Below, piece by piece: positions 1,644 through 7,276 of a stretch of DNA of 7,276 nucleotides. Both the position numbers and the translations under genes were made by a program. The stretch spans positions 1-7,276 of IMG/VR virus record IMGVR_UViG_2547132272_000004; one strand, 5' to 3'. The stretch comes from a virus. Taxonomy: Duplodnaviria > Heunggongvirae > Uroviricota > Caudoviricetes. The first letter of the stretch is position 1, and each line of letters starts with the position of its first letter. Under the pieces are notes generated by a model. It had not been told where the DNA came from, did no database searches, and was given only the letters and a program-made list of their open reading frames with translations.

Positions 1644-2051
1644 TTATTGATGTTTGTTACGTTTGCGAGCTTCTAGTAGCTCGGTGAATAGGCGATTAAA
1701 ATTCTCAACGCGGGCACGGAGTTCGCTGATTTGTGCTTGCTGCTCTGATTTTGGAAGTGCGCGATACAATCGCAACATCTCCAACTCATCTTCCGATAAG
1801 TCTAAGGCGCTGTTGAGTGCAACTGGTGGATCTGGTGTTTTATCCTCGTCACCAAACAGTATCCAAGTTGGTGAACATTGCAATACCTCAGCCAGGCGAT
1901 GCAAATTTTGCCCGCGCGGGGCTGTATGGTCGCTTTCCCATAGTGAAATTGATGAGCCAGATACGCCAGCAGCTTTGCTTAAATCGTTTTGACTTAAACC
2001 AACCTGTTTGCGTCTTTCTCTAATTCGTTGGCCTAAAGTTTTCTCGTTCAT
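1644..2051 (-). CDS. dicA: DicA-like prophage repressor (XRE-family HTH, 135 aa, no peptidase domain)
   Basis: Translation MNEKTLGQRIRERRK...LQCSPTWILFGDEDK...RARVENFNRLFTELLEARKRNKHQ matches E. coli Qin DicA as I recall it, including LQCSPTWILFGDEDK and the C-terminal RARV.NFN.LF.ELL.AR motif. An upstream in-frame ATG at 2102 would add 17 aa but lies in the operator region. Confidence 0.85.
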   Translation of the reverse strand: MNEKTLGQRIRERRKQVGLSQNDLSKAAGVSGSSISLWESDHTAPRGQNLHRLAEVLQCSPTWILFGDEDKTPDPPVALNSALDLSEDELEMLRLYRALPKSEQQAQISELRARVENFNRLFTELLEARKRNKHQ

Positions 2052-2128
2052 ATTTAGATATCTTAATAACCCTTGACTTGAGATTCCTTGAGTGATTACC
2101 ATTGAGAAAACTCAACTTTGGAGGGGTG
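2052..2128. promoter_or_regulatory. divergent promoter/operator region between the DicA-like and DicC-like genes
   Basis: 77-bp intergenic region. Perfect 14-bp palindrome TTGAGAAAACTCAA at 2102..2115. Direct CTTGAG repeats at about 2078 and 2087. Plus-strand -35-like TTGACT at 2073..2078. 8-bp palindrome AGATATCT at 2056..2063. Exact -10 elements not confidently placed. Confidence 0.55.
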
Positions 2129-4357: not shown

Positions 4358-4387
4358 ATTGTGAAGGTGATTTTTTCAGGAGGATTT

Positions 4388-4615
4388 ATGGCGAAACCTT
4401 TTTCTCTCGAACAGCGGGAAGAGCTGAAGGCACGAATTATCGGATTGGTACGCAAAAATGGACGCATGACGATGTCACAGCTGGAGAGAGCGACGGGAGC
4501 AGGCTGGCATTCGGTTCGACGCTGCCTTGTGGATGTGCTGGCTTGTGGCGATTTATACATGTCCGGTAAATACGGTGTTTTTTGCATCAGAGCAGGCGTA
4601 TCGCGTATGGCGTAA
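4388..4615 (+). CDS. hypothetical small protein (75 aa), possible winged-helix DNA-binding fold
   Basis: ATG 4388 with AGGAGG at 4378..4383. The segment MTMSQLERATGAGWHSVRRCLVDVL is HTH-like. Contains the T6 run at 4578..4583. Confidence 0.6.
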   Translation: MAKPFSLEQREELKARIIGLVRKNGRMTMSQLERATGAGWHSVRRCLVDVLACGDLYMSGKYGVFCIRAGVSRMA

Positions 4616-4784
4616 GACACCGGAGAAAAGAACCGACCTGACACTGATTCGAAAGTTACCAGACGGAGAAATACGCCGCTACGACAGGCGTCAGAACATA
4701 ATCTGTAGCGAGTGCCGGAAGAGCGAAGCTATGCAGCGCGTACTGGCGTTTTATCAGGGTAATTTTCAGGAGGTGGTGCGGTGA
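4533..4784 (+). CDS. hypothetical ORF overlapping the preceding gene, possibly its frameshifted continuation
   Basis: No start codon or SD lies downstream of the 4615 stop in this frame. The 3' end is coupled to the next gene (GTGA at 4781..4784). A one-base change in the T6 run at 4578..4583 would fuse it in frame to the 4388 ORF. Confidence 0.35.
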   Translation: MCWLVAIYTCPVNTVFFASEQAYRVWRKTPEKRTDLTLIRKLPDGEIRRYDRRQNIICSECRKSEAMQRVLAFYQGNFQEVVR

Positions 4785-5047
4785 GTGAATCAAAATGCCA
4801 GGTTAAGGGCAACAAGATAGAACCATGTGCAGCACTGGCAAAGTCCCTTGAGCATGATGCTGAATACACGATGCGAAAAGGTCTGCTGATATACAAAGTC
4901 TGGAATGAGAATTTAACTCGCGCCCCTGATTTGGTGATGTTGCGTTCCGGTGAATTTTCTAAATCACCTATTCGAGTCTCATTTTGCCCGTTCTGTGGTG
5001 AAAGTCTGAAAACATGGAAAAAGGAGACAACCAGTGAGCAAGATTGA
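4781..5047 (+). CDS. hypothetical small protein (88 aa) with C-terminal CPFC motif
   Basis: GTG start at 4781 with AGGAGG at 4768..4773 (7-nt spacer). Cysteines at C6, C16 and C69-x2-C72. Confidence 0.6.
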   Translation: MSESKCQVKGNKIEPCAALAKSLEHDAEYTMRKGLLIYKVWNENLTRAPDLVMLRSGEFSKSPIRVSFCPFCGESLKTWKKETTSEQD

Positions 5048-5933
5048 CTATCAGGCACTGCGTGAGGCGGCGGAACGTGCAATTCCAGCAATGGAACGCC
5101 TGTTAATGTTGCCAGCTGATGATGATTTGTTAAGTGAACAGGAACTTAAAGATTACGGTGTGGATATTGATGCGCTCAACGCCTTCAAATTTCTGGCCGG
5201 ACCAGAAACCGTGCTGGCACTACTGGATGAACGGGAAAGAAACCAGCAATACATAAAACGCCGAGACCAGGAAAACGAAATGATGGTTGATGCCATGCAC
5301 GCGGCTATTGCCCTGACAAGTGTTGGAATAGACCTGGACGATTACGACGAATGCGTCTTGCGACTACATGAATGGGGCGCTTTACCTGACTATTGCATTG
5401 CGCTTTATGTGGATTTCGTTCACGGAATTGTATCGAAAAACAAACTTCTGGATTTTGGTTATATCAACGGTGCACCGGTATGGACGTTGCGTGATGAGCT
5501 GGAAGCCGCAGAGAACAACCTTATTGATAGTGAGTGCCATGTTGCTGAACTGGAAGAAGCGCTACGCGATAAGCAGGCGTTACTTGAAGCATCAGAGAAG
5601 CGCATAGCAGAACTGGAAACAAAAGCGAACCAGCAAACCAGAATAAGCGATAAGGGGCTGACAAAGCTGATTGCCGATGCTGACAAAATGCTGGGTATGC
5701 GTTCGCCGGTTATAGACAGCGAGTGGTGGACGCTTTTACGGCAGTTCCTGATTGAACTTCAGGATCGCCGCAGAAACAGCATTTCTGAATCTGGAATCCG
5801 TGCTGAAACCCTGAATGATTTAATCCGACATATTGACAGAAACCTGGATATTGACGCGATGAAATCGCCGTTTGAACTGTCATCTGAAATTGTGGATTAC
5901 GTTAATAGGCAACTGCACAAGGAGAATTCGTAA
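5034..5933 (+). CDS. hypothetical coiled-coil protein (299 aa); N-terminus reminiscent of Ead/Ea22-like prophage proteins
   Basis: GTG start at 5034 with AAGGAGA at 5021..5027. The N-terminal M.IDYQALREAAERA resembles Ead/Ea22-like N-termini from memory only. Central heptad-like acidic region (ELEAAENNLIDSECHVAELEEALRDKQALLEASEKRIAELE). Confidence 0.65.
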   Translation: MSKIDYQALREAAERAIPAMERLLMLPADDDLLSEQELKDYGVDIDALNAFKFLAGPETVLALLDERERNQQYIKRRDQENEMMVDAMHAAIALTSVGIDLDDYDECVLRLHEWGALPDYCIALYVDFVHGIVSKNKLLDFGYINGAPVWTLRDELEAAENNLIDSECHVAELEEALRDKQALLEASEKRIAELETKANQQTRISDKGLTKLIADADKMLGMRSPVIDSEWWTLLRQFLIELQDRRRNSISESGIRAETLNDLIRHIDRNLDIDAMKSPFELSSEIVDYVNRQLHKENS

Positions 5934-6109
5934 TGCAGGTGGCATTTGTTGGCTTGTTACCGCATCCGATCCGCCTTTGGGCGGATATGTCACTCATAAA
6001 AACGCATTTTTTTACTACTGATGGCGGCATTCCGGCACCAAAGCGCCGCCATACCGGTATTGCAGCGGCACGACGAGCAGCAAAGAGACGCAGGAGAGCA
6101 AAACGATGA
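5933..6109 (+). CDS. hypothetical small protein (58 aa), hydrophobic N-terminus and Arg/Lys-rich tail
   Basis: ATG 5933 overlaps the upstream stop (TAATG), with AAGGAGAA 6 nt upstream. Below the ORF-track size cutoff. Two GC-rich hairpins lie within it, so coding status is uncertain. Confidence 0.35.
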   Translation: MQVAFVGLLPHPIRLWADMSLIKTHFFTTDGGIPAPKRRHTGIAAARRAAKRRRRAKR

Positions 6110-6294
6110 AAAACCGTAAAGCAAAGATTCTGTTAGCTCGCAGAAACGGTGTTGGGGTCTGGCGATGGTTGAGGATTAGTAACAGACGAGTGAGGTTGAC
6201 GGGGTGTTGCGGGGTGATGGGTCACAGCTGTTGCAAAAAGCCCAGCGCGGCGCAAAACCGCTGGAAAAACCACTTGCGCACTAAAGGAGAGTGA
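6106..6294 (+). CDS. hypothetical small basic protein (62 aa), Arg- and Cys-rich
   Basis: ATG 6106 overlaps the previous stop (ATGA), with AGGAG 9 nt upstream. Stop is 1 nt before the HNH gene start. Unusual composition. Confidence 0.35.
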   Translation: MKNRKAKILLARRNGVGVWRWLRISNRRVRLTGCCGVMGHSCCKKPSAAQNRWKNHLRTKGE

Positions 6295-6295
6295 T

Positions 6296-6661
6296 ATGGC
6301 ACTGACGAAAAAACAACGTGCAGAACTGCGCATGAAGTTCGGCGGTCGCTGCGCTTATTGCGGCTGCGAACTTGGCGAAAAGTGGCATGCAGACCATGTA
6401 AAACCGGTCATTCGTTTTGATGGAAATATGCTTCACCAGGAACGTGACGATATATCCAACATGGTTCCGGCATGCCACCCATGCAATCTGCACAAGCATT
6501 GCAGTAGCCTGGAAGATTATCGGCGAATTATCAGTGATGGTCGTCGTGAATTCCTTGCGTCCGGGAAAGGCAAAGCGCTGGTTCGTATGGGATTGGTTGA
6601 AATGAAACCTGACCCGGTTGTGTTCTGGTTTGAAAAATATCAAGAAGGGGCTACAGCATGA
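6296..6661 (+). CDS. HNH endonuclease (121 aa)
   Basis: AAGGAGA at 6283..6289 before ATG 6296. Canonical HNH/zinc-finger pattern: CAYCGC ... HADHVKP ... [14 protein letters not shown]. Confidence 0.85.
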
Positions 6662-7002
6662 CGACTTTTACCAGAGAGCAGTTAATAGCTCACGCAGAGG
6701 AGACTATTGAAGCACAGAGACTGTGCATACCGGGCACAATCGACCATGACATCATCCGCACATATAAGATGGATATTGCTGTTCTGGAAATCGCACTGGT
6801 ATCGCTGGCAGCAGAGCCAGCCGGTAAATTGCATGAATACAAACCAGTGGGATATCAGCGTCTGGTTGATGAGTTAATCATGCTGGTAAAGCAGTTAACC
6901 TGGCAACTGAGGAAAGCGAAGCCAGACTGCAAATTACCGGATAAGGCGATGAGTTATCTGGAGCGGAACGGACTGATAAGCGTGGAGGATATTTTACGAT
7001 GA
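6658..7002 (+). CDS. hypothetical protein (114 aa)
   Basis: ATG 6658 overlaps the HNH stop (ATGA), consistent with translational coupling. Protein-like composition. No family recognised. Confidence 0.6.
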
Positions 7003-7235
7003 CTGGCCTGAAGCATTCACAACGGTAGGAATTGCGATGGCAGTGGCGCTGGTGGTGTATTCGATTTGCCGCTGGGGATAAAAACGGTTTGCGGGAAAAA
7101 GGGAGTTAAGTAAAATTGCTGCGGGTGCTTGAGGCTATCTGTCTCAGGCATGAACACCAAAAGGCAGATAGAGAAAAGCCCCAGTTAACATTACGCGTCC
7201 TGCAAGACGCTTAACATTAATCTGAGGCCCAATCT

Positions 7236-7276
7236 ATGTCTCACAAATGTAGGTTAGCCTCTTACGTGCCGAAAGG
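7236..7276 (+). CDS. possible 5' end of a CDS running off the window (MSHKCRLASYVPK...)
   Basis: ATG 7236 with GAGG at 7224..7227. Open to the window end. Only 13 codons are visible. Confidence 0.25.
   Translation, partial: MSHKCRLASYVPK

Follow-up and report, generated by a model that had tools for sequence, protein, structure and literature searches.

The accessory block beside ea22 in Stx phages influences lysogeny and induction and, through them, toxin release (PMC8614690, PMC7093339). The papers on this exo-xis region make no mention of the pair of small, strongly basic open reading frames considered here, ORF1 (58 aa) and ORF2 (62 aa), which lie in the 7,276-nt stretch of prophage DNA that was analysed as a whole (the window). 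The small exo-xis genes resemble ORF1 and ORF2 in being early-transcribed and accessory and in following directly on an Ea22-type gene. Ea8.5 and Orf55 have neither sequence nor fold similarity to ORF1 or ORF2, and the module in the window sits on the pR side after replication genes, whereas the exo-xis genes sit between exo and xis. Lambda itself is not known to carry ORF1 or ORF2, and no lambda record appears among the megablast matches listed.

The RefSeq members of two PHROG families, phrog_13831 for ORF1 and phrog_1380 for ORF2, match the window copies in size, in their place after an Ead/Ea22-like gene and in coupling, and show no material difference from them. Identity between the window copies and database members is 95-100%, and neither family has a function attached to it. 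Because both genes are already catalogued, in PHROG and in RefSeq (for example WP_176235054.1 and WP_077526884.1), they are nothing new in kind and no novelty is claimed for them. We consider it likely that the segment holds two genuine small protein genes, coupled to one another and encoding dispensable basic accessory factors, and that it is not an RNA element.

Layout and coupling of the two frames

Annotation of the whole window identifies it as the early region of a lambdoid prophage. The features that surround and make up the two frames, with their Shine-Dalgarno (SD) sequences, are as follows.

1644-2102, minus strand: HTH repressor
Plus strand: P22-Cro-like, YdaT-like, DnaT-domain replication and lambda-P-like genes, and a DUF977 gene split in two
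5034..5933, plus strand: Ead/Ea22-like gene, 299 aa, the upstream neighbour of ORF1 (Pfam PF13935 Ead_Ea22, E=4.1e-25)
5919..5925, plus strand: SD AAGGAGA for ORF1, inside the last codons of the 299-aa gene
5933..6109, plus strand: ORF1, 58-aa basic protein (phrog_13831, E=1.6e-24, full length, residues 1-58 to 1-58/58)
6092..6097, plus strand: SD AGGAGA for ORF2, invariant in homologue alignment A3
6106..6294, plus strand: ORF2, 62-aa basic protein (phrog_1380, E=1.3e-32, residues 1-62 to profile 1-62/62)
6283..6291, plus strand: SD AAAGGAGAG for the HNH gene, within the C-terminal codons of ORF2 (TKGE) and conserved in alignment A3
6296..6661, plus strand: HNH endonuclease, 121 aa (Pfam PF01844, E=2.2e-6; phrog_2118, E=1.1e-56)
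After the HNH gene, plus strand: phrog_660 gene

RefSeq homologues of the 299-aa gene carry the name ead/Ea22-like family protein. From position 4361 onwards the plus-strand genes all abut or overlap. The first-pass annotation, made from the DNA letters, had described two overlapping frames of 58 and 62 aa, each with an SD and each coupled to its neighbours through start and stop codons, and this arrangement was confirmed in the sequence. ORF1 begins with an ATG that shares bases with the TAA of the 299-aa gene (TAATG, 5931-5935), ORF2 with an ATG that shares bases with the TGA of ORF1 (ATGA, 6106-6109), and the HNH gene follows from 6296, one base past the ORF2 stop. A scan of 5600-6700 found no promoter-like or terminator-like sites on either strand, which argues against an independent transcription unit or attenuator. 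Both frames would then be transcribed within a rightward early operon that has the Cro-, DnaT-domain- and lambda-P-like replication genes upstream of them, together with the Ead/Ea22-like gene. Translation would proceed by coupling, with the SD of each next gene placed within the last codons of the preceding gene and with stops and starts overlapping. At the loci inspected, homologous genes are without exception in early accessory regions of phages.

Since each of these SDs falls within the final codons of the gene before it, part of the C-terminal Arg, Gly and Glu content of the proteins is explained. The tail codons AGG AGA of ORF1, both for Arg, are at the same time the SD of ORF2, and some of the Arg richness of the tail is present because this embedded SD imposes it. 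Nearly every one of the 45 unique ORF1 variants has an ATG or GTG start with an SD of the AAGGAG or AGGAGGTGA type before it, even where the upstream genes differ.

Both products are extremely basic, as had been noted from the letters, and the basic peptides quoted at that stage are present. ORF1 has a pI of 12.0 and 14 Arg+Lys residues; the corresponding values for ORF2 are 11.8 and 17. The two had also been called Cys-rich, a description that fits ORF2 with its four Cys residues, which are not conserved in the family, and does not fit ORF1, which has none. A zinc- or metal-binding Cys-rich microprotein was rejected on the same grounds, the four Cys of ORF2 being replaced in other clades (KYYGMMDCGFC, FTNTADIVMCSL, YLYSGIAREGIK). 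Comparison by hhalign ruled out that ORF1 and ORF2 are paralogues of each other.

Coding constraint in ORF1 and ORF2

Coding constraint was assessed over about 85 homologous loci, with 80 IMG/VR loci retrieved with ORF2 and dN/dS pooled by the Nei-Gojobori method. One IMG/VR locus is identical to the window across the whole segment. The frames of ORF1 and ORF2 are open at every one of the approximately 85 loci, the indels within them are all multiples of 3 (3, 6 or 12 nt), and third codon positions change most. Overall dN/dS is 0.40 for ORF1 and 0.32 for ORF2, compared with 0.73-1.16 for the shifted sense frames. The contrast between amino-acid and nucleotide conservation had been set beforehand as a test, and it reveals coding constraint across the homologues; on this comparison both frames are conserved as coding sequence far beyond chance.

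ORF1 is built of a variable N-terminal half and a conserved Arg-rich C-terminal tail, PAPKRRHTGIAAARRAAKRRRRAKR. The tail has a dN/dS of 0.15 and the N-terminal half one of 0.53, so that constraint on the latter is moderate, not strong. The tail also matches phrog_8108 and phrog_21931, families with other N-termini. When near-matches to the motif DNA were scanned for without bias, 11 DNA variants proved to encode one identical peptide, TGIAAARRAAK, with switches between the Arg codons CGA and AGA among their differences, which points to selection on the ORF1 peptide. Furthermore, the basic character of the tail is preserved through in-frame indels, as in KKRKRRRTKR, and stop avoidance in ORF1 gives P=0.04. 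A word-indexed search placed the relatives of ORF1 in 34 clusters, from Escherichia and Salmonella only, all of them named hypothetical.

The core of ORF2 consists of three Asn/Arg/Gln-rich motifs, MKNRKAKxLL, [RK][IV]SN[RH][RK] and SAAQNRWKNH, around a middle that is variable in sequence and length. All three are present in the window copy and are kept in relatives down to about 35% identity, and phrog_1380 is matched by every one of the 34 aligned relatives. The middle has a dN/dS of 0.37, which suggests moderate rather than strong constraint. In the first ten codons the changes fall 0/0/5 by codon position, and the motif-DNA scan likewise found variation in the first seven codons to be almost purely synonymous. 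At least 144 substitution events were counted in ORF2; neutrality would lead one to expect 7.6 stops among them, and no stop that truncates the family was found (P=5e-4). Relatives from the word-indexed search form 52 clusters, confined to Escherichia or Salmonella and all labelled 'hypothetical protein'. An exhaustive profile search of 1.84 billion representative proteins returned only 44 relatives, with the motifs retained. Tandem paralogues coupled through ATGA exist among the ORF2-family genes.

An antisense frame opposite ORF1 that shares its wobble positions has a dN/dS of 0.39, and 28 of 29 variants keep it open. With coincident wobble positions these statistics mirror those of the sense frame, and the strand call for ORF1 therefore rests on its SD, its start codon, the ATGA coupling and the synonymous Arg switches. 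Stops appear in the antisense frame of 3 of the 45 variants, and one of these stops arises from a substitution that leaves the sense-frame amino acid as it was. An antisense gene was rejected on account of these stops, the lack of a conserved start or SD, and the Arg switches, which are synonymous only sense-wise. Opposite ORF2, stops occur in 37 of the 45 best antisense frames, and the sense frame is accordingly unambiguous. We also considered an ORF1-ORF2 frameshift fusion. Upstream of its start the ORF2 frame continues open for about 28 codons, but dN/dS in that frame is 1.16, and inspection by eye found no slippery heptamer before the ORF1 stop; this candidate was discarded.

Hairpins, mosaicism and rival explanations

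Two stable hairpins had been reported in the segment, and with them the suggestion that it might be a structured RNA or regulatory element instead of encoding small peptides. The hairpins are located as follows.

5969-5975/5980-5986, plus strand: hairpin 1, ATCCGCC-TTTG-GGCGGAT, 7 bp with a loop of 4, inside ORF1 codons
6021-6028/6045-6052, plus strand: hairpin 2, ATGGCGGC ... GCCGCCAT, 8 bp with a loop of 16

Both inverted repeats exist; the claim of stability fared less well. Against 2000 dinucleotide shuffles, P is 0.04 for perfect stems of at least 7 bp in the region and 0.09 for the 8-bp stem; across the whole window such stems occur at 2.2 per kb. The hairpin count is barely above chance, and the minimum free energy is not better than that of shuffles (z = +0.70 on the plus strand and -0.52 on the minus strand). 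The left arm of hairpin 2 falls within the variable stretch of ORF1, and the codons of its right arm read KRRH. Just 4 of 19 distinct homologues, which are the window's own clade, have both stems intact, and the central pairs of hairpin 1 are intact in 4-5 of the 19. An explicit count over the 19 homologues found no compensatory changes, with 0 of 15 stem pairs changed on both sides, and stem cells are paired in 59.7% of cases against 58.7% in shuffles. RNAalifold, run on 19 collinear homologues, gave a covariation term of only -2.1 kcal/mol and a consensus that lacks both stems, so that structure prediction and covariation, which had been proposed as a check, did not recover a conserved structure. 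As the stems are limited to one clade and show no compensation, they would be incidental features of one lineage's codons, and we read the hairpins as lineage-specific accidents. A search of the whole window with Rfam 15 at E<=1 gave no match in 5933-6294; elsewhere in the window Rfam matches were obtained for sok (7123-7276) and a DicF-like element (18-68).

Part of the segment belongs to a unit that is shared between otherwise differing phages.

6028..6300, plus strand: shared mosaic block comprising the ORF1 tail, ORF2 and the SD of the next gene

Megablast detects this block at 80-98% identity in 895 of the 5426 complete E. coli genomes and also in 84 phage records, among them 933W, VT2-Sakai, Min27 and phiV10. 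The two genes are thus common in lambdoid phages of E. coli and Salmonella, Shiga-toxin phages included. A species-level genome scan gave one short contig only, probably a contaminant. ORF2 is found after replication genes or between recombination genes and the integrase. About three quarters of the places that hold an ORF2-family gene have ORF1 in front of it, and some phages carry ORF2 without ORF1 (loci L086 and L090).

It seems most improbable that the segment acts through a structured RNA or cis-regulatory element around the two hairpins (an sRNA, an attenuator or a processing site) with the frames merely incidental. The two perfect stems, whose number is marginally above that in shuffles, would speak for such an element, as would the phage RNAs matched elsewhere in the window and the fact that some annotations leave the stretch empty. 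Set against these are the missing Rfam match, the folding energies and covariation term given above, stems that are broken in 15 of the 19 homologues without one compensatory pair, the lack of promoters and terminators on both strands, and substitutions that show three-base periodicity; the structured-RNA reading is already largely refuted. A very unlikely explanation, too, is that the block is a linker for recombination at the DNA level, in which the conserved ends would supply homology for exchanging modules between mosaic lambdoid genomes and the frames would owe their openness solely to the youth and horizontal spread of the block. The block has sharp edges at 6028 and 6300 with flanks that vary between phages, and it is found in the operon on the pL side or in that on the pR side. 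Junction sequences are present in duplicate at insertions of extra units, and tandem paralogues have ends in common; all of this would suit a linker. The conserved ends, however, vary synonymously with their amino acids fixed, contrary to what constraint on the DNA would give. Relatives of less than 40% identity, whose DNA is too diverged for recombination homology, also keep the motifs, and stop avoidance in ORF2 is significant.

Somewhat more has to be weighed where ORF1 is concerned. It could be, though we regard this as unlikely, that only ORF2 is functional and that the ORF1 peptide does nothing by itself, with ORF1 serving as a leader or coupling frame that passes ribosomes from the Ea22-like gene on to ORF2, or conserved through the embedded SD and an antisense frame. 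The phages with ORF2 and no ORF1 are consistent with this, and so are the weak constraint on the N-terminal half, the wobble-sharing antisense frame that mirrors the statistics of ORF1, and the part of the ORF1 tail that encodes the SD of ORF2; gene callers, moreover, skip ORF1 on some contigs (L089). Yet the peptide TGIAAARRAAK lies upstream of that SD and is fixed across its 11 DNA variants at the low dN/dS of the tail, and the basic tail survives in-frame indels. Stops in the antisense frame, one of them arising without change to the sense peptide, and the presence of ORF1 before most ORF2-family genes also argue for two functional proteins, the reading that we prefer.

Possible function and annotation

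The translated-protein part of the earlier suggestion of small nucleic-acid-binding peptides is supported by open frames, in-frame indels, purifying selection, conserved SDs and starts, and the PHROG families. As for the binding, it is plausible in that the composition, with a pI of about 12 and an Arg-rich tail at a dN/dS of 0.15, is compatible with it; neither homology nor fold lends it support. Single-sequence and profile searches of Pfam, NCBIfam, PADLOC and PDB sequences found no relative of ORF1 or ORF2; the PADLOC anti-phage defence HMMs gave no match to either at E<=0.1, and a literature search with the peptide returned nothing.

A first AF2 model of ORF2 (pLDDT 61) was too poor for use. 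With a deeper alignment the predicted order of elements is alpha-beta-beta-beta-alpha (pLDDT 76, pTM 0.46). Foldseek found nothing significant for this model in the PDB (best E=1.5) or in BFVD, where the top, non-significant match is a HicA-like toxin (E=0.23, TM 0.25). HicA and dsRBD proteins share with the ORF2 model the order of elements, the size and the basic character. A link between them and ORF2 was rejected, as none of 34 family members matches Pfam HicA even at E<=10 and hhalign gives a probability of 0.2% against E. coli HicA. Unlike HicA systems, this locus has no adjacent HicB-like antitoxin.

The likeness of ORF1 to the ARM RNA-binding peptides, such as the N proteins of lambda and P22 and HIV Rev and Tat, is compositional only. 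Its tail, AAARRAAKRRRRAKR, is short, Ala/Arg-rich, presumably helical, basic and under purifying selection, as ARM peptides are. The Arg motif is C-terminal in ORF1, whereas it is N-terminal in ARM peptides, and there is no homology, boxB-like target or antitermination context.

Composition, constraint and context together suggest that the products are dispensable early accessory ('ea/nin-type') microproteins. Their basic surfaces would most likely bind nucleic acid, RNA rather than DNA, or else an acidic host surface, and such binding would modulate early phage development or host physiology. A more specific and tentative idea, to which we give a rather low probability, is that ORF1 and ORF2 form a coupled ultra-basic pair that jointly binds RNA and tunes early expression or the decision between lysis and lysogeny or induction. 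ORF1 would then contribute an ARM-like tail and ORF2 a small fold with no detectable structural relative, and diversification of targets would account for the variable middle of ORF2 and for its tandem paralogues. As two conserved, strongly basic microproteins encoded in roughly 16% of complete E. coli genomes, ORF1 and ORF2 are reasonable candidates for functional tests, and the pair would suit functional studies of the exo-xis region in Stx phages (PMC8614690).

The two frames deserve annotation as genes, which would be a correction to some reference phage records. PGAP annotation is inconsistent, with both frames called 'hypothetical protein' in some genomes and the stretch left empty in others. 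The 933W copy of the block is situated in the leftward exo-xis region, between L0069 (Ea22-like) and L0068; the original record leaves it unannotated, and L0068 there is probably over-extended into ORF2.

Placement of the accessory module between early operons

The placement of the accessory module comprising the Ead/Ea22-like gene, the micro-ORFs and the HNH/DUF551 gene was compared between the window (Ead/Ea22-like gene at 5034-5933) and the homologous loci L001, L003 (phage 933W) and L004. In the window and in L086 it lies in the pR-side operon, in a post-replication, nin-like position, whereas in 933W and many prophages the site is the pL-side exo-xis region. The large phage-plasmids pNJS001-1 and RCS47 also carry it. 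These placements mean that the same module has been transferred from operon to operon.

Arrays and fusions of the ORF2 family

ORF2, the downstream 62-aa basic protein gene, belongs to a family whose members also form tandem arrays, each with two or three diverged paralogues (loci L038-L044, L054, L067, L077-L084 and L087/L088), with ATGA coupling between successive genes. The array paralogues have in common an MKNRKAK start and a QNR[WR]K end, and in L067 the whole cassette is present twice, at separate places. The homologous protein search also found, in some genomes, proteins of ~100 aa that are in-frame fusions of a shortened Ead/Ea22 N-terminus with a complete ORF2-family sequence (P0006, P0036, P0023 and loci with 'ERVRSKMKNRKAK'). 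These are annotated as 'ead/Ea22-like family protein', and are the product either of a deletion or of wrongly chosen start codons.

Gene calls in 933W and a Xanthomonas contig

The reference 933W record (AF125520) carries no annotation for its homologues of ORF2 and of the upstream 58-aa ORF1.

Features in phage 933W (AF125520)
2427-2582, ORF1 homologue
2579-2767, ORF2 homologue
2697-2984, L0068 CDS

The annotated start of L0068 falls within ORF2, in a different frame. Its real start is probably the ATG directly 3' of the ORF2 stop (MAIAASYTMHLYCDC...); a start just past this stop is used for the L0068 counterpart in the gene calls of other genomes. At the 3' end of ORF2, a 427-nt contig assigned to 'Xanthomonas pisi' (L085, NZ_JPLE01000252.1) shows 98% identity to the E. 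coli phage sequence; most likely this reflects a contaminated assembly, not a homologue from Xanthomonas.

A split DUF977 gene and small RNA matches

Features in the window
4361-4615, +, Pfam DUF977, N-terminal half (1-66/134)
4527-4784, +, Pfam DUF977, C-terminal half (64-134/134)
7123-7276, +, sok antitoxin RNA (Rfam RF01794), cut by the window end
18-68, -, DicF-like sRNA (Rfam RF00039)

The DUF977 halves lie in two overlapping ORFs in different frames; the gene is frameshifted, and could be a pseudogene, contain a sequencing error or undergo programmed frameshifting. The Rfam match to sok, the RNA antitoxin in type I toxin-antitoxin systems of the hok/sok kind, is strong (101 bits, with the gathering score at 59; E=1e-22), which places a hok/sok-like module where the early-right region of this prophage ends. 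The DicF-like match scored 34.1 bits (E=1.4e-4), short of the 48 bits set as gathering score. It shares its strand with the leftward early operon, a position compatible with a diverged homologue of DicF like those in Qin-type prophages.
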